A stretch of DNA of 39,283 nucleotides from Nanobdellota archaeon (GCA_027364705.1 DAHXOU010000048.1:1-39283), one strand, 5' to 3'. Counted from the stretch's first letter, positions 4,924 to 32,700 are shown. Notes: generated by a model not told the origin, from the letters alone. Made by a program: numbers and translations.

Positions 4924-5610
4924 CTAATCATCCTTCCATCCAATTTTCAAATGTTCGCCGTCACAAAATGGTTTATTCTTTGATTTCCCACATCTGCATA
5001 ATGTAACCCTATTTCTTATTTCATATTTTTTTCCAGTGTGCGATTGTATTGGAATTTTTCCTTTAACCCAAATAGGTCCACTGCATTTTCCGCCTGTATC
5101 TTCTATAAAACTTATTGACGGCTTGAATTTCGGTTCAAACTTTTTTCCTTTCTTGTCGCACGCAATTAATCTTCCCGACGGACAATTACACGCTTCCTCA
5201 ATTGCAAGTTTCCTGAATTTAGGATTGTCAGAATTTTGAGTAAGGTCCCACACGCCTTGTTTCCTATGACAAAATCTCGCGCTAGAACAAAAACTCGGCG
5301 CGTCAAGCAAATCCAATTTTTTCCCTGAAAGTTTTCCTGCCTGTTCAATATATTTTTTATCAACAGCAGTTTCCTTTCCGTTGAATTTTATCTTCATATG
5401 AGTTCCGTCGCAAAACGGCTTGTGCCCCGAATGCCCGCATCGACATAAAGAACAACTTCCTATGTAAGAATAATTCTTTCCCTTTTTCCATTTCATCGGG
5501 TTACCTTCCGCGTCGTCAACCGAAACCTCTTTCATCATCGGAATTTTCCCCGAGACAAGATACGGCCCGTTCTCAGAAACAACTATCTTCCCCTTTTTCA
5601 TATAGGACAT
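4924..5610 (-). CDS. CDGSH-type iron-sulfur protein (two CDGSH-like motifs flanking a Cys-rich mono-cluster-like centre)
   Basis: Motifs are 'CRCGHSGHKPFCDGTH' and 'CRCGKSKNKPFCDGEH', with a central 'FCSSARFCHRK...ACNCPSGRL'. The true start may be the 4th codon (ATG at 5601), given the TATA box TTTATATAAA at 5623-5632. Confidence 0.8.
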   Translation of the reverse strand: MSYMKKGKIVVSENGPYLVSGKIPMMKEVSVDDAEGNPMKWKKGKNYSYIGSCSLCRCGHSGHKPFCDGTHMKIKFNGKETAVDKKYIEQAGKLSGKKLDLLDAPSFCSSARFCHRKQGVWDLTQNSDNPKFRKLAIEEACNCPSGRLIACDKKGKKFEPKFKPSISFIEDTGGKCSGPIWVKGKIPIQSHTGKKYEIRNRVTLCRCGKSKNKPFCDGEHLKIGWKDD

Positions 5611-14625: not shown

Positions 14626-14657
14626 ATATTTATAATTAATAATTATTTTTGCTAGCA

Positions 14658-15521
14658 ATGGCAGAATCTTATTCTCATTCAAGAATTGAAACATTTGAAC
14701 AGTGCAGACTTAAGTTCAAATACAGATATATTGACAAAATAATTCCTGAAATTGCAAAAAGCATTGAAGCGCATCTCGGAAGCATGGTTCACGAAACTCT
14801 TGAATGGCTCTACACGCAAGTAATGGAAAAGAAAATACCAACAATAAGCGATGTCGTAGATTTCTATTCCGCAAGATGGCAGGAAAATTATACCAAAGAC
14901 ATGAAGATTGTAAACCAATCAATGAAAGCAGAAGATTATTTTCAAAGAGGAGTTGAATTCCTAATTAATTATTTCATGAAACATCACCCGTTTAAAGACA
15001 ACACAATCGCGATAGAAAAGAAAATAGAACTAAATCTCGACGGAAAAGGAGAAAAAAGATTAGTCGGATATATAGACCGTCTTGTGCATAATCTTGAAAC
15101 AGACGAGGTTGAAATTCACGATTACAAAACCAGCAACAGCATGTGGTCAAAAGAAAAATTAGAAAGTAACAGACAGTTAGCATTATATTCCCTCGCAATA
15201 AAAGAATCATTCGGAAAAGAAAAAAAAGTCTGCATGGTTTGGCATTTCCTCGCACACGATATGAAAGTCTGTTTAAGAAAAACAAATGAACAGCTTGAAC
15301 TTCTCAGAGAAGAAGTTATTGCAATAATTGATGAAATAGAAAACACAAAACATTTTCCAGGAACAAAATCTCGTTTATGTGATTGGTGTGAATACAGAAA
15401 TACATGTGAAGCTTGGGGAAAATTGCCTCCTTCATTGACGGTAAAAGATGTTCCTACAAATATTCATCCAGCAGAACAAACTATTGAACATAAAGACGAA
15501 GAATTATTAGATATTTGGTAA
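14658..15521 (+). CDS. Cas4-like PD-(D/E)XK nuclease with 4-Cys Fe-S cluster (solo, no CRISPR context)
   Basis: N-terminal 'SHSRIETFEQCRLKFKYRY'. Motif II/III is 'GYIDRL...VEIHDYKTS', and the Q-x3-Y motif is 'NRQLALYSL'. The C-terminal 'CDWCEYRNTC' (C-x2-C-x5-C) together with the N-terminal Cys gives the Cas4/AddB cluster pattern. I set the start at the ATG at 14658; the track start at 14649 is a TTG. Confidence 0.75.
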   Translation: MAESYSHSRIETFEQCRLKFKYRYIDKIIPEIAKSIEAHLGSMVHETLEWLYTQVMEKKIPTISDVVDFYSARWQENYTKDMKIVNQSMKAEDYFQRGVEFLINYFMKHHPFKDNTIAIEKKIELNLDGKGEKRLVGYIDRLVHNLETDEVEIHDYKTSNSMWSKEKLESNRQLALYSLAIKESFGKEKKVCMVWHFLAHDMKVCLRKTNEQLELLREEVIAIIDEIENTKHFPGTKSRLCDWCEYRNTCEAWGKLPPSLTVKDVPTNIHPAEQTIEHKDEELLDIW

Positions 15522-15587: not shown

Positions 15588-15815
15588 TTAATGAGAACGA
15601 CTTTTTGCAAAGACTTCAATATCTCCAATGCCAATTCTTTCTTTTGCTTTTCCTATCTTTTTTGTATAATAAAGAATATTATAAACTTCAAACTCATCTC
15701 CAGCGTAACGAATTCTTTCACCAACTCGGGGCAATACACCTTCAATAATCGTCGCTGGTCCCATTAGAATACCCAATTTATTCTCCGGAAAAAGTTTGTA
15801 TTCAATTGTTTCCAT
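15588..15815 (-). CDS. small hypothetical protein (75 aa)
   Basis: The ORF has an ATG at 15815; the track start at 15818 is a TTG. It is convergent with the nuclease gene. No family recognised. Confidence 0.4.
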   Translation of the reverse strand: METIEYKLFPENKLGILMGPATIIEGVLPRVGERIRYAGDEFEVYNILYYTKKIGKAKERIGIGDIEVFAKSRSH

Positions 15816-15865
15816 CAATTAGAAAAAGATTTTTACTTTTTAAGGTTAATTATGTTAGAAAATAA

Positions 15866-18487
15866 TTATTCCCCTGTTTCTCCAATTCCTTCACTAACTT
15901 TTATCATGTCAGTTACAGAATCACCTTCATGAAGCTTGACAATTCTAACTCCTTGTGCAGCTCTTCCCATTACTCGAATATTTTCAAGTGAAGTTCTTAT
16001 TACCATTCCCTTTGCTGTTGTAATAATTATACTATCTTTATCGTCGACAGAAATTGTAGCGACAACATCTGCTGTCTTATCACTAACTTTCAGATTAATA
16101 ACTCCTTTTCCTGCTCTCGCAGTTTTTCTGTAATCAGCAACAGCAGTTCTCTTACCAAATCCGTTTCTAGTGATTGTTAAGATTGCTTCAGTGTTCAAAA
16201 TTCCTGAACTAACAACTTCATCGTCATCATCAAGTTTAATTCCTGTAACACCATAACTCGCTCTTCCTGTTTCTCTGACATCATTGCTGTTAAATCTAAT
16301 TGCCTTTCCCTTCTTAGTTGCAAGAGAAACTTCCTGTCCTTTCTTTACAACATCAACGCCAATAAGAGAGTCAGAATTATCTTCAGGTAAATTAATCGCT
16401 TTAATTCCAGATGCACGAGGTTTAGAAAATTCTTCAAGAGGAATTTTCTTGACAATTCCTTTTTTCGTCGCCATGAATAAATCATCTTCAAATATCTTAA
16501 CAGAAATTACATTAGCAACATTCTCATCTTTAAGTCCAAGAAGATTAATCAAAGCTTTTCCTTTACTGTATTTCTCTGCTTCAGGAATATCATAAGCTTT
16601 CAGCCACAAAACTCTTCCTCTCGTCGTGAAAAACATAAGATAATCATGAGTTGAACAAACAATTAACTGTTTAACAAAATCTCCTGTTGCAAGATTACTT
16701 CCAATAACTCCCTTACCTCCTCTTTTCTGTTCTTTGTAAGCTTTAGTATCCATTCTCTTGCAGTATCCTTTGTCAGTAATTGTTACAACAACTTCTTTTT
16801 CCTGAACCAAATCCTTTTCAGAAATTTCAGTTATTCTCTTAAGAACATTCGTATTTCTTGTATCTCCGTATTTCTCTTTAAGACCATTAACTTCCTTAAC
16901 AATTATTTTCAAAACTTCCTTTATGTCTGCAAGAATTTTCTCATACTCTGCAATTTTTTCAATTAATTCCTGTTGTTCTTTTTTCAACTTTTCCTGTTCA
17001 AGAGAAGTTAATTGCTGTAACTTAGTTTCTAAAACTGCCTGTGCCTGTTTTTTGCTAAGCTGGAATTTTTTCATAAGACCTTCAAGAGCTTCTGCAGTTC
17101 CCTTAGATTTCTTAATCAAGTCAATAACAGCGTCGATATTCTTCAAAGCGATTATAAGTCCGTCAACAATCTCAAGTCTGTCTTTAGATTTCTTAAGTTC
17201 GAATTTTGTTCTGTTAGTGATAATTATTTTTCTGTGCTTTACATATTCTTCAAGAACATTTCTAAGATTGAGAATTCTCGGTCTTCCTCCGACGAGAGCA
17301 AGGAAGTTCACATTAAAAGAATCCTGAAGTCGCGTGTATTTGTAAAGAGAATTAATTACAAAATCTGCACTCGCGCCTTTTCTAAGTTCAAGAACTATTC
17401 TGATTTTCCCTTTAGAACTTTCATCCCTTAAATCAGAAATATCTTTCAGTTTCTTGCTCTGAATTAATTCAGCTATCTGTTCAACAAGAGAAGTTTTGTT
17501 AAGCATGTAAGGAATTTCAGTAATTACAATTGCCTCTTTAGTTTTCAGTTGTTCAACAGAAACTTTTCCACGAACAATCAATTTCCCCTTTCCTGTTTTA
17601 TACAATTCAAGCATATTTCCTGAAACACTTCCGCCAGTAGGAAAGTCAGGACCAGTAACAATATTACAAAGTTCTTCAATAGTTATTCCTTCATTTTTAA
17701 CATAAGCAATAATTGCATCACAAATTTCTCTAAGATTATGAGGAGGAATATTTGTAGCCATACCGACGGCAATTCCTGTTGCTCCATTAATTACAAGAGA
17801 AGGTAATTTCCCTGGAAGTAAATCTGGTTCCTTAAGTGAATTATCAAAATTAGGAGTGAACTTAACAGTTTCCTTATCTATATCTTCAAGTAATTCCGTC
17901 GCAATATGCATCAGTCTTGCTTCAGTATAACGATAAGCAGCAGGAGGGTCTCCGTCGATGCTACCAAAATTACCCTGGCCATAAACTAAAGGATATCTCA
18001 GTGAAAAATTCTGAGCCATTCTTACCATCGCATCATAAACCGCAGTATCACCATGAGGGTGGAATTTACCGATAACATCTCCCACAACTCTTGCCGATTT
18101 TTTTGTCTGACTTCCAGGCTTCAGTCCCATCAAATGCATCGAATATAAAATTCTTCTCTGAACAGGTTTAAGTCCGTCTTCAATTGCAGGAATCGCTCTC
18201 GAAACAATTACTGACATCGCATAATCAAGATATGCCTTCTTCATTTCTTCAGAAACTTCAACAGGAATTACCCGCTTAGGATCTTCGTCAGGACTAATTC
18301 CACTCTTAGCAATTTCTTTTTTTGTTTCATCTTTTTCTTCTTCATCTTCTTCTAATTCGCCAATTTCATGTTCTTCATTATCTTCCTCTACGTTCTCTTC
18401 GGCATCTTCAACTTCGTCTTCGACTTTATTTTCTTCAGTTTCTTCTTCCATCTCTTCACGGTTATTTATTTCTTCTTCGTCTTCCAT
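15866..18487 (-). CDS. gyrA: DNA gyrase subunit A with poly-acidic N-terminal extension
   Basis: '[15 protein letters not shown]', active-site region '[10 protein letters not shown]', GyrA-box 'QKRGGKGV', and a C-terminal beta-pinwheel. The first ~58 residues are almost all E/D. Its ATG shares a base with the upstream gene's stop. Confidence 0.95.
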
Positions 18488-18819
18488 TAAGCAACTTCCT
18501 CTCCTTTTTCATCTAAATATTTCATAAATTCATCCTCAGTCAATTCATCTTCTTCAACATCTTTTCCATGCCATTTACACTCTTTGCACTCCCATTCTCC
18601 TGTAGATTTTGAAATTGATTCTTCATCTTCATCATCACTTCCTTCCTGTTCACTTAAAACAACATTAACATCATAACTTCCACAATCAGGACATTTCTTA
18701 ACTTTGAAAGTTTTACCTTCGGCCTTCTTACTTTTCTTGTTTAATCCGTGCGACTTTTCCCAATCTGCTTTTGAATCAAATCCTTCTTTAATCCAGTCTG
18801 GTGTTGCTAATTTTCCCAT
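18487..18819 (-). CDS. acidic zinc-ribbon protein
   Basis: 110 aa with a 'CPDCGS...CKECKWHG' four-Cys ribbon and acidic runs 'SDDEDEES' and '[10 protein letters not shown]...EKGEEVA'. It is translationally coupled to gyrA (TAATG). Confidence 0.7.
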
Positions 18820-18820
18820 T

Positions 18821-19108
18821 TTAACTTAATTTATTTTCTAAATTTACTTTAGTGAATCTTTTTACTTTTTCTCCTTTCTTGAATTCTTTTCCGTCTTCAT
18901 TTGTATAATTTCGGTCAAATTCTTTGTATCCAATAAATTCTATTAGTGGACGAGAAAATGGCTCGTTAACATAAACTTTTTCATCGTTGTATAAACTTTT
19001 GTAATATACAAACTGTTTTCCATTAACTTTTGCTACAGTTACAATTTCATAAATATGATTTTTTCCTTTCCAATGTTTGTATTGTTCTCCTTGTTTTGGT
19101 TTTATCAT
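18821..19108 (-). CDS. DUF1653-like small protein
   Basis: 95 aa. 'YKHWKGKNHIYEIVTVAK...FVYYKSLYND...VNEPFSRPLIEF' matches the DUF1653 pattern (Y-x-H-Y-K-G...Y-x-V...VVY..L...W-x-RP) as I remember it. Confidence 0.5.
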   Translation of the reverse strand: MIKPKQGEQYKHWKGKNHIYEIVTVAKVNGKQFVYYKSLYNDEKVYVNEPFSRPLIEFIGYKEFDRNYTNEDGKEFKKGEKVKRFTKVNLENKLS

Positions 19109-19692
19109 TGTTTATCTTCTCCAAATAATTTTTTCTCAACTAAATCACAAACGATATGATAAATTAATTCATGAGCTTCCTGAATTCTTGGTGTATCTCT
19201 CGACGGAACATCAAAACAAATATCACTTAAACCTTTTAATTCTCCGCCATCTTTTCCTGTTAATGAAATATTATAAGTTCCAATTTGATATTTTCCTTTC
19301 TGAAATGCTCTTATGACATTTTTAGAATTTCCAGAAGTTGAAAGACCAAGTAAAATATCTCCAGGTTTTGCATAAGCTTCAACTTGTCTGTTGAAAATAT
19401 CATCAAAATTATAATCATTACTCCAAGCAGTTATAATAGAACTATCTGTAGATAAGGCAAGAGCAGATAAAGCTCTTCTTTCTTTTTTGAATCTTCCGAC
19501 GAGCTCTCCTGCAATATGTTGCGCATCAGCAGCACTTCCCCCGTTTCCCATTACCAATACTTTATCTCCTTTAAGATAACACTGCACAATAGAATTAGCA
19601 ATGTTCTCAATCTCATCAGCTCGGTAAACTAACTCTTTCTTTATTCCGTTGTTTTCCCTTATGCAATTTTCTATGTAATTTTTGTAATTCAT
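19105..19692 (-). CDS. gmhA: SIS-domain protein, phosphoheptose (sedoheptulose-7-phosphate) isomerase GmhA-like
   Basis: 'VMGNGGSAADAQHIAGELVGRF', 'NDYNFDDIFNRQVEA', 'LGLSTSGNS', 'LTGKDGG' and 'RIQEAHELIYH' align closely with my recollection of E. coli GmhA. It overlaps the gyrB stop by 1 nt and the next gene by ATGA. Confidence 0.75.
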   Translation of the reverse strand: MNYKNYIENCIRENNGIKKELVYRADEIENIANSIVQCYLKGDKVLVMGNGGSAADAQHIAGELVGRFKKERRALSALALSTDSSIITAWSNDYNFDDIFNRQVEAYAKPGDILLGLSTSGNSKNVIRAFQKGKYQIGTYNISLTGKDGGELKGLSDICFDVPSRDTPRIQEAHELIYHIVCDLVEKKLFGEDKQ

Positions 19693-21578
19693 TATATGTC
19701 TAAGTTTGCCTCGTGCGCATTTTCTTGAATGAATTCTTTTCTCGCCTGAACATCATCGCCCATCAGCATTGAAAAAGTCGTATCAGCTTCAACAGCATCG
19801 TCGACAAATATCCTTTTAATTTTTCTCGTCTTAGGATTCATAGTAGTTTCCCATAACTGTGTCGCACTCATTTCTCCAAGACCCTTGAAACGTGTAACAT
19901 TTCCTTCTTTAGTATCAAGTTTCTCAAGAGTTTTTTTCAATTCCTCTTCGGTGTAAACATAATAATCTTTATTTTTTCTTATTCTGAATAACGGAGGAAG
20001 AGCTGCATAAATATTTCCATTCTCAATTAATTTGGGCATGAATCTAAAAAATAAAGTAAGCAATAAAGTTTTGATGTGTTCTCCGTCAACATCTGCATCA
20101 CTCATGATAATTATTTTCCTGTATCTTAATTTTTCCAAATCAAACTGGTCGCCAACACCTGTTCCTATTGCAGTAATTAAATTTGCAATTTCCTCGCTGG
20201 ATAAACTCTTGATAGGATTAGATTTCTCAACGTTCAAAATTTTTCCCCTAAGAGGCAGTATTGCCTGATTTTCTTTATCCCTCGCCATCTTAGCAGAACC
20301 TCCAGCTGATTCCCCCTCTACAATATATAATTCAGTATCTTCTGATTTATTACTTGAACAATCTGCTAATTTTCCAGGAAGACCACCGAGAGAGAAAACA
20401 TTTTTTCTTCTGACAAGTTCTTTTGCCCTTTTAGCAGCCATTCTTGCTTTAGCAGCAGCTTCTGCCTTAGAAACAATTTTCTTTGCAACAGCAGGATTCT
20501 CTTCGAAAAATTCAGCCAATGCAGCAGTAACAATTGAATCAACCCATCCTTTAACTTCGGAATTTCCAAGTTTAGTTTTAGTCTGTCCTTCAAATTGCGG
20601 GTCGGGAATTTTAATACTGATAATTGCAGTCAAACCTTCTCTCACATCTTCTCCTGAAAAATTCTCGCTCTTGATAATTCCTTTTCTCTTTCCATAATCA
20701 TTTATCACTCTTGTCAAAGCAGTCTTGAATCCAAAAACATGAGTTCCCCCTTCGACAGTATTAATTGTATTTACAAAACCGAAAATATTTTCCTGATAAC
20801 CAGTGTTATATTGAATTGAAACCTCAATAACAGTGTGGTCCATTTCTCTCTTGAAATAAACTGGCTTGTGAAGAACTTCTTTAGACTTGTTCATCCATTT
20901 AACAAATTCTATCAAACCACCAGTAGCCAAAAATTCTTCTGTCTTATTTTTCTCCTCATCTCTTAATATAATTTTAAGACCAGAATTAAGAAAAGCAATT
21001 TCCCTGAATCTTGTTTCAAGAACCTTATAATCAAAATCTACTGTAGAAAAAATTTCTTCATCAGGCCAGAAAGTTATCTTTGTCCCTGTTTCATTAGGAG
21101 AACATTTGCCTACAATTTCTAATTTTGTCTTCGGGTCTCCTCGTGAATATTCTTGTCGATAAATGTTTCCGTTTCTTTTTATTTCAACAATGAGCTTTTT
21201 TGAAAGAGCATTTACACAAGAAACTCCGACGCCATGAAGTCCTCCTGAAATCATATAGGATTTTTTGTCAAATTTTCCTCCTGCATGAAGTTTAGTCAAA
21301 GCAACTTGAACAGCAGGAACTTTCAGAATAGGATGCATATCTACAGGAATTCCTCTTCCATCGTCGTCAATAGTAGCAGAACCATCTTTGTTTAATGAAA
21401 CAAAAATGACCTTACAGAAACCACCAAGAGCTTCATCAACAGAATTATCGACTGTTTCATAGACTAAATGGTGCAAACCATCCTTTCCTGTGCTTCCGAT
21501 GTACATCGCCGGTCTTTTTCTTACTCCTTCAAGACCTTCGAGCACTTTTATTGATTCTGCGGTATATTGTTCTGACAT
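19692..21578 (-). CDS. gyrB: DNA gyrase subunit B
   Basis: 'LEGLEGVRKRPAMYIGST', 'EVDNSVDEA'-type motif (VDNSVDEAL), 'GGLHGVG', 'PLRGKILNVEK' and Toprim 'IMSDADVDGEHI'. 628 aa. Confidence 0.96.
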   Translation of the reverse strand: MSEQYTAESIKVLEGLEGVRKRPAMYIGSTGKDGLHHLVYETVDNSVDEALGGFCKVIFVSLNKDGSATIDDDGRGIPVDMHPILKVPAVQVALTKLHAGGKFDKKSYMISGGLHGVGVSCVNALSKKLIVEIKRNGNIYRQEYSRGDPKTKLEIVGKCSPNETGTKITFWPDEEIFSTVDFDYKVLETRFREIAFLNSGLKIILRDEEKNKTEEFLATGGLIEFVKWMNKSKEVLHKPVYFKREMDHTVIEVSIQYNTGYQENIFGFVNTINTVEGGTHVFGFKTALTRVINDYGKRKGIIKSENFSGEDVREGLTAIISIKIPDPQFEGQTKTKLGNSEVKGWVDSIVTAALAEFFEENPAVAKKIVSKAEAAAKARMAAKRAKELVRRKNVFSLGGLPGKLADCSSNKSEDTELYIVEGESAGGSAKMARDKENQAILPLRGKILNVEKSNPIKSLSSEEIANLITAIGTGVGDQFDLEKLRYRKIIIMSDADVDGEHIKTLLLTLFFRFMPKLIENGNIYAALPPLFRIRKNKDYYVYTEEELKKTLEKLDTKEGNVTRFKGLGEMSATQLWETTMNPKTRKIKRIFVDDAVEADTTFSMLMGDDVQARKEFIQENAHEANLDI

Positions 21579-21694
21579 TTTTAGGTAGAATCTACAGAAG
21601 AAAAAGTCCGTAATTATTTATAAACCTTTCTGCACAAAAATAGTGATTTATCGACGGAGAAATTAATTATAGAACCAGATAAATAGATTATAAT

Positions 21695-22558
21695 TTATTT
21701 TTTTACTTCCTTAATTCTTCCTTCTTTCTCTATCATTTTTATGTACTTAATTATTTCATTTTTACTCTTTTTCACACCCATTTTTCCAAGTCTTTTCTGA
21801 ATTTCATTAAGACCTAATGCTTTCTTATGAGTCAAAATTTTTATAATTTTACCCTTTATTTCAGAATTAGAAATTTTTCCAGATTGCTTAACTATTTTCT
21901 TGGTCTTAGCAGGAGAATGTTTTCTTCTTGCTCTTTTTTTCTTAACTACTGCAGTTTTTGCAGGAACAACTTTTTTAGATTTTGTTTTTTTAACAACTTT
22001 AATTGGTTTCTCATGAGAAATTTTCATTTTCTTTCTTCTGACTTTGTTTTTCCTATTCTTTCTTTTTTTTCTCATTTCACTTTTAATTTTTACAATTTTC
22101 TTTTTTGCTCTTCTCTTCCTGTTCTTTCTTAATTTTCTTTTCAGATTTACCGGAATTATTTTAAGAGATAAATCCTGTCCTTTGTCTTTAAAATCCTCAA
22201 CTTTCTTTCCAAGTTTTTTAATTGCAGATTTTATTTCAGGAAGATTTTGTTCAAGATCTTTTTTAATATCTTTAATATCATCAGAAATACCGCTAACCGC
22301 TCCAGAACTTCCTCTGCTTCTTCTTTTTTTAGTAGTTGGATGATATTTATTAGAAATTTTTAATTTTAATATTTTAATTCCTCTTTCTATATTTGGAATT
22401 TCAGAAACATTTTTCAGTTTTGCTCTTATTGCATCAGCATCACTCTTAAATTTTTTTGTATCTAAAGAATTAAGTTCACGTTGCAATTCTTTCAGTCTCT
22501 CGACACCAATCTTAAATGCTTCAAAATCTTCACGGCTTATTTTTCCCTCTTTTGCCAT
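21695..22558 (-). CDS. extremely basic (K/R-rich) protein: N-terminal coiled coil, poly-basic linker, C-terminal winged-helix-like domain
   Basis: 287 aa. The central stretch 'KRKLRKNRKRRAKKKIVKIKSEMRKKRKNRKNKVRRKKMK...KKKRARRKHSPAKTKK' is more than half K/R by eye. The C-terminal 'IIKILTHKKALGLNEIQKRLG...IIKYIKMIEKEGRIKE' looks like a wHTH. SD-like GAGGA lies 6 nt upstream of the ATG. Confidence 0.6.
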   Translation of the reverse strand: MAKEGKISREDFEAFKIGVERLKELQRELNSLDTKKFKSDADAIRAKLKNVSEIPNIERGIKILKLKISNKYHPTTKKRRSRGSSGAVSGISDDIKDIKKDLEQNLPEIKSAIKKLGKKVEDFKDKGQDLSLKIIPVNLKRKLRKNRKRRAKKKIVKIKSEMRKKRKNRKNKVRRKKMKISHEKPIKVVKKTKSKKVVPAKTAVVKKKRARRKHSPAKTKKIVKQSGKISNSEIKGKIIKILTHKKALGLNEIQKRLGKMGVKKSKNEIIKYIKMIEKEGRIKEVKK

Positions 22559-22608: not shown

Positions 22609-23796
22609 TTACTTAAGGAAGCCAATTCGGTATCCTTGTTTTTTAAAATCAGAAAGTTGTTTGTTGATATTGCTTCCTGAAACTTTTTTCATTTCTTTTT
22701 CTGCTTCAACCATTTTGAATCCGTGTTTCTTCCAAGAGTTAAGTTTTCTACTGACTTCATTTTTCTTTCCGTGTTTCTTCAAATTTTGTAATTGTATTCT
22801 CTGAATTTTATGTTTGTGTCTTATTCCTTTAATAATTTTTTTACGAGCAAGTTTCCATTCACGTATTTTCTTTTTATTTCTAAAAGTTCTAACTTTAGCT
22901 CGGCAGGAATTAAGAAGATTAATATTATTTTGAAGTTCATTATTCTGTTGTTTCTGAAGTTTAATCAACAAGTCATCACTTCGTTTAATAAAATAAAATA
23001 ATAAAGCAAGACTCCCGACGACAAAAATCAAAATTATTACAATGAAAAAATTGGAACTCTCATAAGCAAGTTTATCCTTTTTTACTACATTGAATAAATA
23101 ACTGGATACACTTTGAGTTTCAGCATAATCGATAGTCGTTATGAACACGTAATCCCCAAGAGGAACATTAGGAAGATTGATTATTTTATTCATAGATTCT
23201 CCAAGAGTTAAATCTTCTTCATCAGACCAGATTATTTCATTGTTAAAATTTTTAATGGAATATTTGACGTGGACATTTGGAAGAGAAACATAATCTAAAT
23301 CAAAGACTTTTATTTCAACGCCCAATTTTCCATTAGGATACACATTTTCATATTTTGGAATGGTAGACTGGATAATTGCAAAAGGAGGATTTGAACCTTC
23401 AACAGTTAAGATTATTGGAATTTTTTTAACAGCATCAAAAGTTTCAATTATTAACTGCCCCGTATAAACACCAACTTCCCGAATATTATCTTTGAAAAAT
23501 ACTTTTATTTCTTTTGATTCTCCAGGACCGAGACTGAATGTTTTCTCGTCGATAGAAGCAAGATTATCCAGTTTATTGAAATAAACACTAAAATCTCTTT
23601 GAATCATTTCAGTATTTGTTATCCGGATATTATCCGTAGCTTCACCGCCAGTTTCCATATTCAGTTTAATAAGAATTATATTTGTCGCAAGTCCTGCTTC
23701 CCCAGAAAAATAATTCATTTTTACAAAGACAAATCCTGCAATAGCTAAGAAGATTATCAATACAGAAATAAATATCCACTTCTTTTTTACCATCAT
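22609..23796 (-). CDS. bitopic membrane protein, paralog of the giant protein's C-terminal anchor module, with basic cytoplasmic tail
   Basis: 395 aa. The order is N-terminal TM (WIFISVLIIFLAIAGFVFV), two beta-rich domains, a second TM (FFIVIILIFVVGSLALLFYFI) and a roughly 125-aa K/R-rich tail. It aligns by eye with giant-protein residues encoded at 23930-24570. Its ATG overlaps the giant gene's stop (ATGA). Confidence 0.75.
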   Translation of the reverse strand: MMVKKKWIFISVLIIFLAIAGFVFVKMNYFSGEAGLATNIILIKLNMETGGEATDNIRITNTEMIQRDFSVYFNKLDNLASIDEKTFSLGPGESKEIKVFFKDNIREVGVYTGQLIIETFDAVKKIPIILTVEGSNPPFAIIQSTIPKYENVYPNGKLGVEIKVFDLDYVSLPNVHVKYSIKNFNNEIIWSDEEDLTLGESMNKIINLPNVPLGDYVFITTIDYAETQSVSSYLFNVVKKDKLAYESSNFFIVIILIFVVGSLALLFYFIKRSDDLLIKLQKQQNNELQNNINLLNSCRAKVRTFRNKKKIREWKLARKKIIKGIRHKHKIQRIQLQNLKKHGKKNEVSRKLNSWKKHGFKMVEAEKEMKKVSGSNINKQLSDFKKQGYRIGFLK

Positions 23797-26700
23797 CTCT
23801 TTATCTTTTCTTTTATATAGTTCCGTATTCTTTTATACCTTTTGATTACGATAAAGAGTATTGCAGAAATAATAATTAAAGCAGAAATTATTGAAAGGAT
23901 TACTATCTTTCTATAATCTCTTTCTGCTTTGTCCATAATTGCAAATTGCGAACTTGCAACAGCAACTCCTCCAGGATAGATTAATTCAACACCGACGACA
24001 TAATCTCCATTTACAAAATCTTTGGTATTAAATTGTTTTGTAAAACTTTTCTGATTATAAACTGCAATAGTTTCTGATTCAGTAAGATAAACTTTTCCGT
24101 TGAAATCTTTAATGAGATAATTAAGCTGAACGTCCATATTTTCTTTGACTCCCATCTGAAGAAGATTAATTTGCATTTTCAAATCTTCTCCCGAATTTAC
24201 AATTTTGTCAGATTTTGGAATTGACAAAGTGATATCAAATAAACTTTTTTCAGTTCTCACATTAATGATAACAGGAATTTCTCTTCTAGTAGCTCCAGCA
24301 GTTACAATAATCTTTCCCGTATAAATTCCTGTGCTCGTCGGAGAATCAATTCTGAATTTAGCTTTTTTGGTTTCCCCCGGATTTAATCTGATTGTTGAGT
24401 TAAGGATAGAGATTATATTTCCGACACTCTCTACACCGATGCTAAAAGTAGTTTCGGTATTTCTCTCGTTATAAATTTCTATTTCTCCGAACTCAATTCT
24501 GTTTAAGATAATTGTTCTTTGGTATATCTTTGGTGAAAGAGTAAAATTATTCTGTTCAATAAAAGTTGAACCTCCTCCGCCTCCTCCAGAAGGTGTTGTT
24601 ACTGGCGTTACAGGAGTTTCTTCTGAACTATAAATTGAAAATCCAGTTACATCATAAACAAAAGTTCCTCCGGAATAACTAACTTCAGTACAAGTTGTGC
24701 AGACCACACCATTTTTTAATGGACGAGGATTGCTGAAACTTAATCCATAAAAATATAATCTTGCAGTTTTATTTAATTCAGGCAATATTGTAGTGTTAAC
24801 TTCAATTCTATTAAAACTAATATTAACACTCGCATCAATGTCAGTTCCATTTTCTAAATTAATATCCTGAGAAAAGTTTATTTCTCCATAAGTAGGAGCC
24901 TGTAAAACTAAATTAGTAATATTAGTCACATTCAAATCAGATAGATTCGTTGTAGTTCCTGAAAAATAATTTGTAATGACAACACTAAATATTCTTTGTT
25001 CACCTTCAATAACAGTATTATTATTCTGTGTACAATTAACGCTCCAATTATATCTTCCAGGAGGCAGATTATTGAGATAAAAATTCATATTCTCTGCTTT
25101 TGTGATTGTTAGATTAGTCTGGTTAATTGAATTATTAAACATCAAAGAACAGTTTGAAACTATTCCTGTTCCGTCGATAGAATAGACGAAGCTAATATTT
25201 CCGTCGTTATCTCCCGAATTATTTATCGGAGCAATTAAAGTTATTTCTAGAGTTGTATTAATTATTATAGTTCTTGTTTGTGTTGAATTTTTATTATTAA
25301 GAGTATCATTTACAGTTACATTGTAATAATAAGTTCCGTCGGATAATCCTGTCCAGTTTATCGTTCGAGTAGAATCCGTATAAGAAGTTGAGTTAAATTC
25401 CCCTGAAGTATTGTAAAGTAAAAAAGTAATCGTGTCTTCATTTATTTCATCAACACTCACGTTAACATAAATCCAGTCATTTTTGCTTGTTGTTCCGTTT
25501 GCTAATGTTCCAGTTCCGTAAGAAATGACTGAATTAATACTATCCTTAAAGAAAGTTACTGAAGAGGAATTTTTATTTCCCGCAGAGTCATTGATGTAAA
25601 CAATCCATGTATTGCTTCCTTCATTACTTGTTAATCCTGTCCAGTTTGTTCCGCAACTAACAGGTGTAGAATTTGCTCCGCCATTTAATGAATACCAACA
25701 TAAAACAGGATTTATTTCTGTATAAGTATAATTCAAGGTTGAAACATTAGAATTGTAACTTGTATTTTGGGGGTAACTCATGTTAATTTCAGGATAAACA
25801 GAATCAATAAAGAATGAAACATATTCGCTGTTGTTAATATTATTACTGGTATCATTACACCAAAATCTTGCAATATAACTTCCCTGCCCCATTGTTGAAT
25901 TTGTATAATTAGTTCCAGTCAAACTTGCATTAAGATCCATTGTATAATTCGTTGCCCAATTATTTATACTGAATAAACAAGAACTCAAATTCTCATTTGA
26001 AGAAAGGTTAAATGAAATCGTCGTAGTTGCATAAGTCGTATTCACAGGAGATAAAATATTTATCAAAGGATTAACCAAATCAGCAGCTACTGAAACATTA
26101 AGAGTAATAACACTGGAATTCAAATTTCCTAAAGTATCATTTACTGAAACATTGATGTCATATAACCCAAGTGCAAGAGCAGAAGAATTTGTCAAAATTC
26201 CTGTTGAAGAAACAATAGTAAACTTGGTTGTCCAGTTAATTGCAAAACTTCCTAATCCAACACCAGTATCATTCGCATTAATATCATAATTTAATGACTG
26301 TCCTTCGATTAAAGTTTGATTTGCTAGATTTGTAAAGTAAGGAGGTAAAGAATCGATTGTAAAATTAACACCAGTCTGGTTAAAATTATTAACAGTATCA
26401 TTTACCCAGATGGTAACATTATGTCTTCCCTGACTCCAAACTACTGTTGTTATGTTTGTTCCACAATTTGCAAGAGTAATATTCAAACTCATTGAATCAT
26501 TTGAATACCAGCAAGTTGAAAGATGTACGTCGGAAACAGTGTAGTTTATATTTAATCCAGTATTAGATGAATTTGTATTATTCGTCGTAGGATAAGTTAT
26601 GCTAATAGCGGGTTTAGTTGTATCAATGCTAAATGACACTGATGATGAATTTTCATTACCGGCACTATCATTTGCCCAGATAGTTACATTATGATAACCT

Positions 26701-29700
26701 TGAGACCAAACAATAGAGGTTAGATTTGCACAATTAGATAATGTTGTGTTTACTGAATATGAATCATTAGAATACCAACACCCTGTTAGATGAAGGTCGG
26801 AAACAGTGTAGTTTATATCAAGATTAACATTCGAAGAATTAGTGCCATTGACTAAAGAAGTAATATTAATTTCTGGATTAATTGTATCAATTGTAAAATT
26901 AACCGACGCAGAACCGAGATTATTAGTTGTATCATTTGCCCAAATAGTTATATTATGCGGTCCTTCTGCCCAGGTTACAGTAGTTATATTTGCACAGTTT
27001 GCCAAAGGAATGTTCAAACTCATTGAGTCATTTGAATACCAGCAAGCAGAAATTGCAACATTATCTGAAGCAGTGTAGTTTATATTTAATCCAGTATTAG
27101 AAGAATTAAATTTAGGAACAGGGTAAATAATATTCACAATTGGGTTGGTTGAATCAGCAATAGCTGTAACATTAACATACCAAGTTTCAGAACTTCCAGA
27201 ATAATTTGTATTCGACGGATAAATTGCAGTGATGTTGTAAAGTCCTGTTCCGTTGAAAGAAGTTAAATTACTTAAAGGAGAATTTCCTGAATTGATTAAA
27301 GTGTTATTCTTGTAAAGATAAATCGTTCCTGTAACATTGAATAAAGTTGCATTCAACCAGATTGCAGTATTGTTGTAAATTGTGATATTATTTCTTGAAT
27401 TATTTAAGTAAGTGTAAATTTTAGATGAAGTATTTTGTGCAACAGTTAATATTGATGAAGTAGTCATAATAGAATAATTTTCATTCCCTGTTGAATTGTA
27501 AGTGTAATTATAAACTCCGACTCCGAGAGTTATTACATGAGGATTAGCAACTATCCCCGAAGTGTTCAAAGATAAATTACAAATTAATTCTGAAGGACAT
27601 CCAGAACCTGTTGCTGTTGTTTCTGTAGGATAAGTTACTATTGTCGATGGAGTAATTGCTAAAGATAAAACATAAGTTGTATTCTGTGTTATGTTAAAAA
27701 TAGTTGTGTTTGAACTTTCCGTATAATTTTGCGAAGATGCTAAACTACAATTAAATGTCCAATTTCCAACACCCAAAACAATTTGTGAACCCGATGTTCC
27801 ATTTGTTAACGTTGTCGTTCCTTGTCCAGATATTACAGAACAAGTCGGCGTAATTGCATTCGGATAACTCTGAGGATTTGTTTTATCAAAAGTCAATGAA
27901 GTCTGTGAAGCAATCTTGGAAACATTAACTTGATAAATTGTTGAATTCAAATTATTGGAAGAATCATTTATTGTGATGTTGATTAAGTAAAGTGCAACTC
28001 CGAGAATAGTATTATTTTTTAATCCACCAGAAGAATTTATTGTAAATCTTGTGTCGTTGACAGAGTAAAAACCAAAAGCAGTTTCATCTGAAGCGTTGAA
28101 GTCAACATCTAATGCTTGTAAATAATTCAATGAAGCATTTGCAGGAATTGCTGTGAAGTAAGGAGGAGTTGTGTCTGCTGTTGATGTAACATTTACATAC
28201 CAAGTTTCAGAACTCCCAGAATAATTTGTATTCGAAGGATAAATTGCAGTGATATTGTAAAGTCCTGTTCCGTTGAAAGAAGTTAAGTTACTAAGAGGAG
28301 AATTTCCTGAATTAATTAAAGTGTTATTCTTGTAAAGATAAATTGTTCCTGTAGAATTGAATAAAGTTGCGTTTAACCAGATTGCAGTATTATTGTAAAT
28401 AGTAATATTGTTTCTCGAGTTATTAAGATAAGTGTAAATTTTAGACGAAGTGTTTTGAGAAATATTTATTGTCATTGTTACTGAAGCAATATTAGAATAG
28501 TTTTGATTTCCTGTAACATTGAAAATGTAAGTGTAATTTGTAACACCTAGAGTTTGATTTAATCCGTTTTCTGTTGTTACATCGACGTCATTTCTGTAAA
28601 GTTTAACTGTTCCGCCTGTTGTAGATGCTGAAGCATTAACTTGTTGTGGATAAGTTATTGAAATATTATTCAGTTGAGAATTAATTGAGTAAGTTAATGT
28701 TGGTGCAATCTTTGAAACATTTACTTGATAAATTGTTGAATTCAAATTATTAGAAGAATCATTTATTGTGATGTTGATTAAATAAAGTGCAACTCCAAGA
28801 ATAGTATTATTTTTTAATCCACCAGAAGAATTTATTGTAAATCTTGTGTCGTTGACTGCATAAGTTCCAAAGGCAGTTTCATCTGCTGCAGAGAATATTA
28901 CATTTAATGCTTGAAGATAATTTAATGAAGCATTTGCGGGAATTGTTGTGAAATAAGGAGGAGTTGTATCTGCGGTTGATGTAACAGATATTTGTAACAC
29001 ACTTGAATTCAAATTTCCCAAGGTATCATTTACTGAAACGTTTATGTAATAAGTTCCTGCGGATAAATGAGTTGAATTTGATAGAACTCCTGTCGATGCA
29101 ACAATTGAAAAGTTTGTTGTCCAGTTAATTGCAAAACTTCCTAATCCCACACCATCATCTACAGCGTTTATGTCATAGTTGAGTGTTTGATTATCTGCTA
29201 TTGTTTGTGTTTGTAAATTTGTAAAGTAAGGAGGTAAAGAATCAATTCTGAAACTCACACTTGATTTATTTACATTATTTACTGTATCATTTGCCCAAAT
29301 AGTTACATTGTGGTAACCGTCACTCCAAACAATAGTAGTTAAATTTACACAATTAGATAAGGTGGTATTTACAGAATATGAATCATTAGAGTACCAACAA
29401 GAACTTATTGAAGAAGTTATATCACTCAAAGTATAATTCACGTCTAGATTAACATTCGATGAATTAGAATTATTCAACGGAGTTGTTATTGAAATTGCAG
29501 GTTGAGTATTATCAATTGTAAAATTTCTATCTGTTATTCTTGATTTAACATCTGCAGAATTGTCTCCAGAATATGCAGTAATATTTGTTCTGTATTTTCC
29601 ATCAGGAACTAAAGAAGTATTGAAATTAATCCACAAGTCAAGATCATTTGGGCATAAGAAACTTCCATTAATTGTATAGTTCCAAGTTCCATCTGTGTTT

Positions 29701-32700
29701 CTCAAAGTTAAATTATGTGTTACATTACCGACGCTATCAGGGTCTTTTGCACAACCAATTTTTATCTGCATTATTCCTTTGTGTGTCCCATTTAAATTAA
29801 TATCATAATTCAATGCAGAATTATTATATTCTAAAACAATAGGATAAGATATTGGATGATTTGTTGGAGTTATCTCGTCTCGAACTAAACTAAAATTATA
29901 ACCTGCATTTCCATACATATCTGTTGCATAGTAACCAAAATCAAATTCATCATTTGCACTTCTTGTAGAAGTAGTAAAGACATCTGGTGTGAAATTTGCT
30001 TGAACCCAAGTTGTTCCTCCATTAGTTGTAATCCAAGCAACATTTGTTTGATTGAAAGGAACATCTGTATTAGTTGTTCCATTTGCATATCTTAACTCAT
30101 AACTTTTTCCTGCAGCTGTTTCTGGTGATTCATATTCGATATAGAATTCTGCAGTTGCTTTTATTCCACCAAAATGTCCGTTGATAATTCCATAAGTTCC
30201 TTTGGAGTAAGAAGAATTTCTATCAGTAAATATTCTGTTATTTATTTCTGTTGAAGTCAATGAATTAATCAATGCACAATTTGGAGAATTAATTACCTGA
30301 ACAGAACCAGCAGGATTGTAAGAACTATTACAATAAAATGCCCTAAATGTCTTTGATGGAGCACCAGTAACTGCAAGATTTCTAAATGAATTCATAGTAT
30401 AATTTTGTGTATTTCTATATGCTTCAGCATCAAATCTTTTCATCAACAAATAATTATTATTCCTTATTGTATAATTTTTCTTGCTCTCTTTTACCATAGA
30501 TTCATAACTTAAGTAAACACTTTGTCTAAATGCGGCAACATCTACTGCAGGATGAGTGTAATTTATTATAACACTTGTGTTTGCAGTATTCTCCGCAGTG
30601 ATTGTAAAATGTCCGTATTCTCCATCTTCAATTGCGTAAGAAAATGTATCATTCAAAATATTATAGCAAGGATTAATTCCTTCACAAGTTTTGTTTAAAG
30701 TGGTAATTGAGTCATACCAGTATCCTTCATTTCTTCCAAGAGCTCTCCAAATTTTATAAGGAGGAGTTAAATTTCCGACAACACCCAATGAATTATTTGG
30801 ATACCTATTTGACCAATAATTAGGAATTCCTGCAGCCAAAACAAATGCATCAACAGTTCTTGTGATAAAGAAAGCATAATGGTCCCCAAGTTTAGTTAGA
30901 TTAACGCCATTTATATCTGTACAATTCATTATTACAGTTAATACTCCGGTAGAATTATCAACAAGATTTGATGGTGTTCTGTTTAATAAAGTACAAACTG
31001 GCCCAATTGAATCTATATTAAATGAAACAAATGAGGAGTTTAAATTATTTGAAGTATCATTTGTCCAGATTGTAACATTATGCTTTCCTTGAGACCAAAC
31101 TATTGTAGTTAAGTTAGCACAATTAGATAATGTTGTATTTACAGAATAAGAATCATTAGAATACCAGCAAGAGGAAATTGCAATATTATCTGAAACTGTG
31201 TAGTTAACATTTAAGTTAATATTGGAGGAATTTGTTCCATTAACAGGATAAGTTATATTGATGTTTGGTTTAATTGTATCTGGCGGTGTAACATTTACAT
31301 ACCAAGTTTCAGAACTTCCAGAGTAATTTGTATTCGAAGGATAAATCGCAGTGATGTTGTAAAGTCCTGTTCCGTTGAAAGAAGTTAAGTTACTAAGAGG
31401 AGAATTTCCTGAATTGATTAAAGTTCCATTTTTGTAAAGATAAATTGTTCCTGTAGCATTGAATAAAGTTGCGTTTAACCAAATTGCAGTATTATTGTAA
31501 ATTGTTATGTTATTCCTTGAATTATTTAAGTAAGTGTAAATTTTAGATGAAGTATTTTGAGAAACATTTATTGTCATTGTTACTAAAGCAATATTAGAAT
31601 AGTTTTGATTTCCTGTAACATTGAAAATGTAAGTGTAATTTGCAGCACCGAGAGTTTGATTTAATCCGTTTTCTGTTGTTACATCGACGTCATTTCTGTA
31701 AAGTTTAACTGTTCCTCCTGTTGTTGATGCTGATGCGTTAACTTGCTGTGGATAAGTTATTGAAATATTATTCAGTTGAGAATTTATGGAGTAAGTTAGC
31801 GTTGGTGCAATCTTTGAAACATTAACTTGATAAATTGTTGAATTCAAATTATTTGAAGAATCATTTATTGTGATGTTGATTAAGTAAACTGCAACTCCCA
31901 AGATTGTATTATTTTTTAATCCGCCAGAAGAATTTATTGTAAATCTTGTGTCGTTGACTGCGTAAAAACCAAAAGCAGTTTCATCTGAAGCGTTGAAGTC
32001 AACATCTAATGCTTGTAAATAATTCAATGAAGCATTTGCAGGAATTGCTGTGAAGTAAGGAGGAGTTGTGTCTGAAGTAATACCAACTGTTACAATTCTA
32101 GTTTCTGTCTTGTTTAAATTTCCTGAAGAATCAATTGCATAAGCAGTAAAATTATAATTAGCATTTGTTAAATTTGTAAAGTTATTACGATATTGATATG
32201 CTGAAGTATTATACAAAGAGGAAATTTCCGAAGAAGATAATGCTCTAGAGAAAATTAAAACATCATCTAAGCTTCCATTAAAATAAGCACAAGGAGCAGG
32301 ACCACGATTATCTACACCAAGGGTTAAACTTGCCGAGGGGAATAAAGAACCTACACCATTTGCACTTGCTAAAAGATTTCCATCCCTGTAACTTATTAAA
32401 TTAGTAATGTTCCAAATAAGAGTATACATGTGCCAAGAGTTATCTGTTAATCTCCCCGCATCAACAGGTAGAAAAGCGCTACCATTTGCAGTATACCAAT
32501 TTCCATCACAATAAATACCATAACCTCCGCTTGTACCGCTAAAATCTGCTATTGGAACATCATTAGTAGTGTTAGATTTTATCCATAAACTTACTGTAAG
32601 TCCATTAGTAAAACCAGATAAAGATGAATCAGGAACACTAATAGAATTATTAACTCCGTTAAACTGCATTCCTTTTCCTCTTATCCCCGTAACGATATTG

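Follow-up and report, generated by a model that had tools for sequence, protein, structure and literature searches.

Organization of the gyrase gene block

DNA gyrase of the archaeon studied here is encoded by a five-gene block in which three small genes separate gyrB from gyrA. The block lies on the minus strand of a 39,283-nucleotide (nt) stretch of a Nanobdellota genome (GCA_027364705.1 DAHXOU010000048.1:1-39283), hereafter the window. From gyrB onward, it comprises gyrB itself (19692-21578; 628 amino acids (aa), full length), a gene for a SIS-fold, GmhA-type sedoheptulose-7-phosphate isomerase, referred to as SIS (19105-19692; 195 aa; assigned by SIS_2 and GmhA matches), a DUF1653 gene for a small beta-barrel protein (18821-19108; 95 aa; assigned by PF07866 and an AlphaFold2 (AF2) model), a gene for a four-cysteine zinc-ribbon protein, ZnR (18487-18819; 110 aa; identified from the open reading frame (ORF) listing and the sequence), and gyrA (15866-18487; 873 aa). 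The interval between gyrB and gyrA is referred to as the gap. Going from gyrB to gyrA, the junctions are a TAATG overlap of 1 nt, an ATGA overlap of 4 nt, a 1-nt spacer and a second TAATG overlap of 1 nt; in the ORF listing and the sequence, all four (gyrB/SIS, SIS/DUF1653, DUF1653/ZnR and ZnR/gyrA) exactly match those given in the first-pass annotation, a reading of the window made from its sequence.

The only sizeable intergenic space heading the five-gene block is the 116 nt upstream of gyrB. Direct reading of the sequence places a putative archaeal promoter element there, similar to a B recognition element (BRE)/TATA box (gaaagg TTTATAAATA; 21615-21630, minus strand), ~40 nt upstream of the gyrB ATG. 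Past the gyrA stop codon, a T-rich stretch (TTATTTTCT ... CTTTTTCT; 15821-15865, minus strand) is a possible archaeal terminator. The promoter-like element and the T-runs fit a single transcription unit, and we infer that the five genes form one compact gyrase operon read into a single mRNA. A search for RNA support for co-transcription found the window sequence only in DNA metagenome runs from mine drainage. Elsewhere in the window, 5 of ~13 same-strand junctions also overlap, and overlap between unrelated genes is the norm there; therefore, tight packing by itself is a weak argument for functional linkage.

Both gyrase subunits are intact. GyrB contains the Pfam domains HATPase_c, DNA_gyraseB, Toprim and DNA_gyraseB_C and scores 910 bits against NCBIfam model TIGR01059 (cut-off 882), covering the model end to end. 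GyrA combines the Pfam domain DNA_topoisoIV with six DNA_gyraseA_C blades and scores 1075 bits against TIGR01063 (cut-off 877), with residues 73-865 spanning the whole model. By equivalog criteria, GyrB and GyrA are DNA gyrase, and the C-terminal beta-pinwheel of GyrA is present. Because both subunits cover their models end to end, neither is a fragment, and ZnR is an addition rather than a piece of either of them. The window encodes ribosomal protein S6e, aIF2-gamma and aIF5B and has a G+C content of ~32% and a 4319-aa surface-type ORF, and its nearest relatives are labelled Nano-, Woese- or Pacearchaeota; it is archaeal and looks like part of a DPANN genome.

Position and conservation of ZnR

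Two surveys define the distribution of ZnR. In the forward survey, the window proteins were mapped onto 80 gyrB loci from species-representative genomes; essentially all loci with a GyrB identity of at least ~70% have ZnR in the gap. In the reverse survey, an alignment of ZnR used as the query retrieved 73 further loci; in 70 of these, ZnR is preceded by gyrB and followed by gyrA, and contig ends cut the remaining three. With duplicates removed, the surveys yield 95 unique ZnR loci, and ZnR sits in the gap in 95 of 95, including the three cut on one side by a contig end; no ZnR outside the gap was found in the surveyed loci. In a neighbour-joining tree of GyrB plus GyrA, the ZnR bearers, labelled Woese-, Pace- and Nanoarchaeota, form one monophyletic clade in which all species-level genomes (73/73) carry ZnR. 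The position of ZnR is conserved amid changing neighbours: the minimal arrangement gyrB-ZnR-gyrA occurs in only 12 of the 95 loci, additional genes separate gyrB from ZnR in 71 of 93 loci, and additional genes separate ZnR from gyrA in 51 of 91. Background synteny is weaker than that of ZnR, the downstream nuclease gene being retained in 64% of related loci (29/45, adjoining gyrA in 15) and the two genes upstream of gyrB in 9-15% (4/46 and 7/46). Clustering of the ZnR family gives 542 clusters at 90% identity, all devoid of Pfam domains; at 50% identity, only 67 are present among 1.84 billion representatives. The family is confined to the clade, and a search of viral contigs yielded no ZnR.

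ZnR begins with a basic N-terminus bearing an invariant TPxW motif, continues with a Lys-rich linker and then forms a ribbon of the pattern CPxC...WxCxxCxWxG. The cysteine spacing is CPxC-x20-40-CxxC, and the intervening loop varies in length; the window copy has a long, very acidic one. Invariant positions are T6, P7, W9, C43, C46, W76, C78, C81, W83 and G85. The C-terminal tail, a conserved acidic segment of 19 residues, forms an amphipathic helix. The protein is charge-bipolar: the N-terminal part has a median net charge of +7, the tail one of -7. The most acidic copy is that of the window, with an isoelectric point (pI) of 4.6. This conservation pattern indicates purifying selection. Searches of ZnR against Pfam and NCBIfam returned no family above cut-off, and those against the PDB, by sequence and by fold, returned no specific relative, all giving generic zinc-ribbon noise only. 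A literature search on DPANN gyrase plus zinc ribbon found nothing relevant, and the main survey of archaeal gyrase covers gyrBA operons and not the ZnR gene (PMC9348778). Its retention between gyrB and gyrA in ~100 related species makes ZnR an undescribed candidate gyrase partner, and no curated family covers it.

Besides ZnR, some gaps contain short zinc-ribbon proteins (~50-60 aa, CPxCGS...Y.CxxCGY..LFPKF), and in more distant DPANN loci without ZnR, a basic-tailed ribbon variant directly follows gyrB (examples of these short or basic-tailed ribbons are L011:12352-12531, L028:11884-12117, L039:6731-6991 and L051:5854-6096). In iterative searches, both the short ribbons and the basic-tailed variant are detectably related to the ZnR ribbon, and either may represent its ancestral form.

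A second recurrent gap protein, AcP, belongs to an uncharacterized, very acidic family of 60-145 aa with the core EFSLxxxEIDEWIxKLxELK...EIDxENxLxINY, and is found in 26 of 102 gyrB-gyrA gaps; the window does not encode it. In most of these 26 loci, AcP directly follows ZnR, usually with overlapping stop and start codons, and in one database entry, P0136, the two proteins are fused. In a sister clade without ZnR (L046-L048), AcP is the sole gene between gyrB and gyrA. Examples are found at L036:9415-9618, L050:3309-3539, L022:12449-12757 and L046:11948-12166.

GyrA of the window carries, outside the gyrA model, an acidic low-complexity N-terminal extension of 72 residues (18272-18487, minus strand), 53% Asp or Glu and the joint-longest among the 113 loci scored (tied with L033). 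The GyrA core has a pI of 9.2, compared with 5.7 for the complete protein. The median extension is 18 aa in the ZnR clade, where it ranges from 8 to 72 aa, versus 8 aa in outgroups. We considered the extension as a fused AcP remnant and rejected this, as it is devoid of the AcP hydrophobic core and varies freely in length across the clade. The GyrB or GyrA match is broken by 1-2 kb, or begins only at residue 150-190, in many related loci (for gyrB, L063, L089, L094, L114, L119, L129 and others; for gyrA, L037, L040, L051, L090, L096 and others). These interruptions are consistent with inteins; the window's genes are uninterrupted. At L239:5916-8435, gyrA consists of two adjacent ORFs of 396 and 442 aa, a split that might reflect a frameshift, a misassembly or pseudogenization.

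SIS, DUF1653 and other cargo of the gap

SIS matches SIS_2 with an E-value of 1e-24 (87 bits, cut-off 27), and its best NCBIfam models are phosphoheptose isomerases, although it stays just under their equivalog cut-offs (TIGR00441, 197.4 versus 209.45; PRK13936, 201.7 versus 276). PDB chains of GmhA are matched at E 1e-50, with Burkholderia pseudomallei GmhA (2xbl) at E 4.5e-50. The catalytic Glu-Gln-His (E-Q-H) triad defined for GmhA (PMC4697000) corresponds to E63, Q171 and H179 of SIS; these residues, together with the STSGNS motif (S120-G121-N122-S123), are invariant in six gyrase-linked SIS copies and align with 2xbl. The first-pass annotation had likened SIS to DiaA, a GmhA paralogue recruited to bacterial DNA replication. 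In Escherichia coli DiaA, Ser and Asn replace two of the three triad residues (PMC4697000). The corresponding segments read HIAGELVGRF and RIQEAHELIYH in the window SIS versus HFAASMINRF and RIQEMHMLTVN in DiaA, and SIS scores 143 bits against the DiaA model PRK10886, whose cut-off is 352. Since SIS, unlike DiaA, keeps the triad, the analogy is unsupported and a DiaA-like recruitment was not borne out. To our knowledge, archaea have no DnaA.

From its sequence, SIS appears to be an intact GmhA-type isomerase with a metabolic role, presumably in heptose or nucleotide-sugar synthesis. A Nanoarchaeales contig carries a canonical epimerase-gmhA-hldE operon, and another SIS homologue (59% identity) lies among AglB/STT3 and glycosyltransferase genes. 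P0217 (313 aa) is a natural fusion of a SIS/GmhA domain with a cupin/mannose-6-phosphate-isomerase-type domain. In one locus (L035), SIS shares the gap with an RfaE-domain-II-like nucleotidyltransferase. No gene for hldE/hddA, gmhB or hldD is found within the 39-kb window. Free-standing cupins of the P0217 type occur as gap cargo in L008, L011, L089, L132 and L133.

The occurrence of SIS is patchy on the gyrase tree, as is that of DUF1653. SIS is present in 5 of ~100 GTDB species loci, i.e., ~5% of operons; in the forward survey, it occupies the gap in L010, L035 and L036, lies past gyrA in L001 and is absent from all other loci. A single-protein SIS search of the genome collection, which is insensitive, returned three loci, L001 among them. 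Three relatives with a GyrB identity of 93-94% (L004, L244 and L245) lack SIS, whereas a fourth at 93% (L246) reads gyrB-SIS-DUF1653-DUF1653-ZnR, which is the window's order, and the arrangement is thus not unique to this contig.

Several observations speak against SIS being a pure passenger. When the closest homologues of SIS were looked up blind to their context, all six (62-77% identity) proved to reside in gyrase operons, at differing positions: immediately behind gyrB or gyrA, or behind another cargo gene. Also, SIS identity declines in parallel with GyrB identity, and the ancient residence of SIS could reflect selection for co-expression. At 61% identity or below, the contexts of SIS homologues vary. 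As a control, loci of bacterial GmhA have gyrase within 8 kb in 0 of 80 cases, counted among the best matches listed, from which known DPANN copies are missing. The identity of SIS to bacterial GmhA (50-61%) is about as high as that to DPANN relatives, and the gyrase-linked copies form one clade, separate from bacterial GmhA and from the hldE-linked copy. Because the divergence of SIS tracks that of GyrB, vertical descent with loss is favoured over exchange. SIS would thereby appear to be an old resident of the operon, lost in most lineages.

DUF1653 passes PF07866 marginally (24.3 bits, cut-off 23.5), and its homologues in L237 and L246 have a precomputed PF07866 match. The AF2 model (pLDDT 87) is an all-beta, small beta-barrel; compared with the PDB by fold, it has no significant match and only a faint Tudor/SH3-like resemblance, and a literature search on DUF1653 found nothing relevant. 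DUF1653 is present in ~5 of ~100 GTDB species loci, the forward survey finding it only in L004, L032 and L054. All copies seen, in nine loci, lie in the gap upstream of ZnR, and most directly adjoin it, the exceptions being one small intervening gene in L237 and a spacing of ~260 nt in L096. As judged from this distribution, DUF1653 is dispensable gap cargo of a subfamily that has long resided in the gyrase operon.

Cargo of this kind is widespread, as 83 of 102 loci carry at least one gap gene and some carry up to seven. Cargo was counted at the level of families only, clustering being inflated by ORFs that start inside the conserved 3' end of gyrB. The families include a membrane-anchored Cys-rich protein, HD phosphohydrolase, MazG-like, Maf and MutT-like Nudix proteins, YjjG/CTE7-like HAD phosphatases, nucleoside-deoxyribosyltransferase-like proteins, cupins, RfaE-domain-II-like nucleotidyltransferases, PNPOx, ACT, DUF498, GrpB, S51 peptidase, SnoaL, a tRNA-binding domain protein and S-adenosylhomocysteine hydrolase. 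Many of these are housekeeping enzymes of the nucleotide pool, a theme that may or may not be meaningful. The HAD cargo was also considered as GmhB, which we rejected, the best models being CTE7, REG-2 and YjjG-type nucleotidases.

Several genes flank the operon. Directly upstream of the gyrB promoter region lies a gene for a 287-aa, extremely Lys-rich protein (21695-22558, minus strand; pI 10.8) without a family match, conserved in the closest relatives only (L004, L036 and L246). The minus-strand run that reaches gyrB is headed by genes for two proteins typical of DPANN giant surface proteins, an 816-aa beta-helix protein (36821-39271), encoded almost at the window end, and, downstream of it, a 4319-aa ORF (23793-36752) whose only family match is a bacterial Ig-like domain; a 4-nt overlap joins them to the next gene. 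On the other side, 47 nt downstream of gyrA, a 76-aa ORF (15588-15818, minus strand) matches no family, lacks homologues in all related loci and may not be a real gene. The best-conserved flanking gene, convergent with gyrA, is that for the PD-(D/E)XK/Cas4-like nuclease (14649-15521, plus strand). Two further minus-strand genes, unrelated to the present finding, encode a CDGSH iron-sulfur protein with an additional divergent 4Fe-4S module (4924-5610) and a DUF362 protein with a 2x[4Fe-4S] ferredoxin domain (1043-2242).

Interpretation and comparison with known systems

We consider it probable that the block is one gyrase operon in which ZnR is a gyrase-associated factor, and SIS and DUF1653 are dispensable, co-transcribed cargo. 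ZnR would be made from the same mRNA as GyrB and GyrA and, by analogy with the proteobacterial gyrase inhibitor/protector YacG, would dock on gyrase and modulate DNA binding, wrapping or assembly. We infer such a physical interaction, and an effect on the enzyme, from the strict, neighbour-independent position of ZnR, its restricted phyletic range and its docking-motif-like conservation. SIS and DUF1653 would belong to a shifting repertoire of small genes, most of them for enzymes, that occupy the gyrB-gyrA gap and are expressed alongside gyrase but dispensable to it; the subfamilies of both would have long resided in the operon and been repeatedly lost. The first-pass annotation had suggested an accessory role in gyrase for at least some of the three inserted proteins; the suggestion is partly supported, for ZnR on the strength of its positional conservation in relatives (73/73 species-level genomes, 95/95 loci), and is unsupported for SIS, with the DiaA analogy, and for the patchy DUF1653 (~5% of loci each).

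A further-reaching view, which we advance tentatively and with some doubt, is that ZnR, often together with AcP, may be a lineage-specific third component of archaeal gyrase. As a small subunit or regulator, ZnR would then act through its acidic tail on the basic C-terminal domain of GyrA or on the DNA gate, and it would have been acquired after gyrase entered DPANN and kept throughout a clade of hundreds of species. Compatible with this view is a second one, that gyrB and gyrA may frame a cassette hotspot at which small housekeeping genes are gained and lost.

Several results weigh against a role of ZnR on gyrase. All ZnR loci belong to one clade, so that the positional conservation is phylogenetically non-independent; the AF2 model of ZnR, of moderate quality (pLDDT 65), shows a ribbon plus a C-terminal helix, i.e., a generic zinc-ribbon fold; and no fusion of ZnR with GyrA or GyrB is present among the 1.84 billion representatives. 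Nor do any indels or signature residues of gyrase track the presence of ZnR, except GyrA I292M, and with no clade-specific indel and a single signature, no obvious docking surface was detected. These points, except for the shared clade, would also suit a different explanation, in which all three inserts are unrelated to gyrase and ZnR is the oldest hitchhiker in the strong constitutive operon of a promoter-poor genome, e.g., a generic nucleic-acid-binding or translation/transcription micro-protein locked in place by overlapping start and stop codons. Overlapping junctions between unrelated genes, the dozens of unrelated families in the gap, and the automatic annotation of ZnR in the sources as L37ae, Elf1 or TFIIS-like are likewise in its favour. 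However, one would expect a hitchhiker to disappear or relocate as other cargo does, yet ZnR is kept in 100% of the clade amid turnover of its neighbours and never occurs outside the gap in the surveyed loci; and since it abuts different genes in different loci, locking by overlap fails to explain its retention. We therefore regard this explanation as unlikely, though worth keeping in view.

Less likely still is that ZnR does not partner the enzyme and instead is a small DNA-binding transcription factor that autoregulates gyrBA, perhaps adjusting expression to supercoiling. Small archaeal DNA-binding proteins commonly have a basic N-terminal half and a zinc ribbon, as ZnR does; its gene lies within the very operon that would be its target; and 45 ZnR members searched against Pfam at E-values up to 0.1 give weak matches to transposase, TFIIB and NrdR-type ribbons. 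Yet the best-conserved parts of ZnR, the acidic C-terminal helix and TPxW, resemble protein-docking rather than DNA-reading elements, a regulator gene need not sit between structural genes, and no conserved operator was found, although none was searched for. It is highly improbable that SIS (as a DiaA-like GmhA paralogue), DUF1653 or both serve gyrase as stoichiometric accessory subunits: the tight, overlapping junctions, the gyrB-SIS-DUF1653 order shared with L246, the single clade of gyrase-linked SIS copies, the six closest homologues all in gyrase operons (in the gap or just past gyrA) and the gap location of DUF1653 in 9 of 9 occurrences accord with it, but SIS occupies only ~5% of the clade's operons, gyrase must work without it in relatives at 93-94% GyrB identity, its triad and phosphate motif are intact where those of DiaA are altered (PMC4697000), its score against the DiaA model is far under the cut-off, DPANN gmhA is found beside hldE or glycosylation genes, and the SIS-cupin fusion P0217 points toward sugar metabolism.

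As a protein whose gene always lies between the two subunit genes throughout a large archaeal clade, ZnR would be the first candidate for a lineage-specific gyrase component in Archaea, and it bears on how a bacterial enzyme is domesticated after horizontal transfer. The variable cargo offers a quantifiable case of gene hitchhiking inside an essential operon of ultra-small genomes, and it cautions against inferring a physical complex from tightly packed genes.

Gyrase is usually described as an A2B2 enzyme, and the small protein partners of gyrase that we know of are bacterial, plasmid-borne or phage-encoded. A type IIA gene set with a third small gene is likewise found in phage T4, whose topoisomerase II consists of gp39, gp60 and gp52. 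There, gp60 has split off from the GyrB-like subunit, whereas GyrB and GyrA here are of full model length, ZnR being an addition. As for the SIS insert, it keeps the E-Q-H residues and STSGNS phosphate loop of GmhA while adjoining gyrase genes instead of hldE/gmhB; like DiaA, it is near genes related to DNA replication, but unlike DiaA, it retains the catalytic Glu and His. The gap as a whole resembles O-antigen and capsule loci, in which variable small genes, some of sugar or nucleotide metabolism, likewise lie between conserved genes with a patchy distribution on the tree, although the cargo here is embedded in an essential operon.

YacG (65 aa) and ZnR are both small four-cysteine zinc proteins with Trp residues and a C-terminal tail, the tryptophans of YacG being functionally important. 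In ZnR, the likeness consists of the invariant Trp residues in and beside the ribbon, the conserved tail and the genetic tie to gyrase. The cysteine spacing of YacG, C-x2-C-x15-C-x3-C, differs from the CPxC-x20-40-CxxC of ZnR. Moreover, ZnR is archaeal, has an additional basic N-terminal TPxW module and is encoded within the gyrBA operon, whereas yacG is not. The YacG family is absent from the Pfam matches of the 45 ZnR members (E up to 0.1), and no YacG chains are among the PDB sequence or fold matches of ZnR. In YacG, the zinc finger inserts a Trp to make contact with GyrB, and the C-terminal region reaches across both GyrB and GyrA and blocks DNA binding (PMC10886550). Although non-homologous, YacG would offer, by analogy, the closest functional counterpart of ZnR among known systems.

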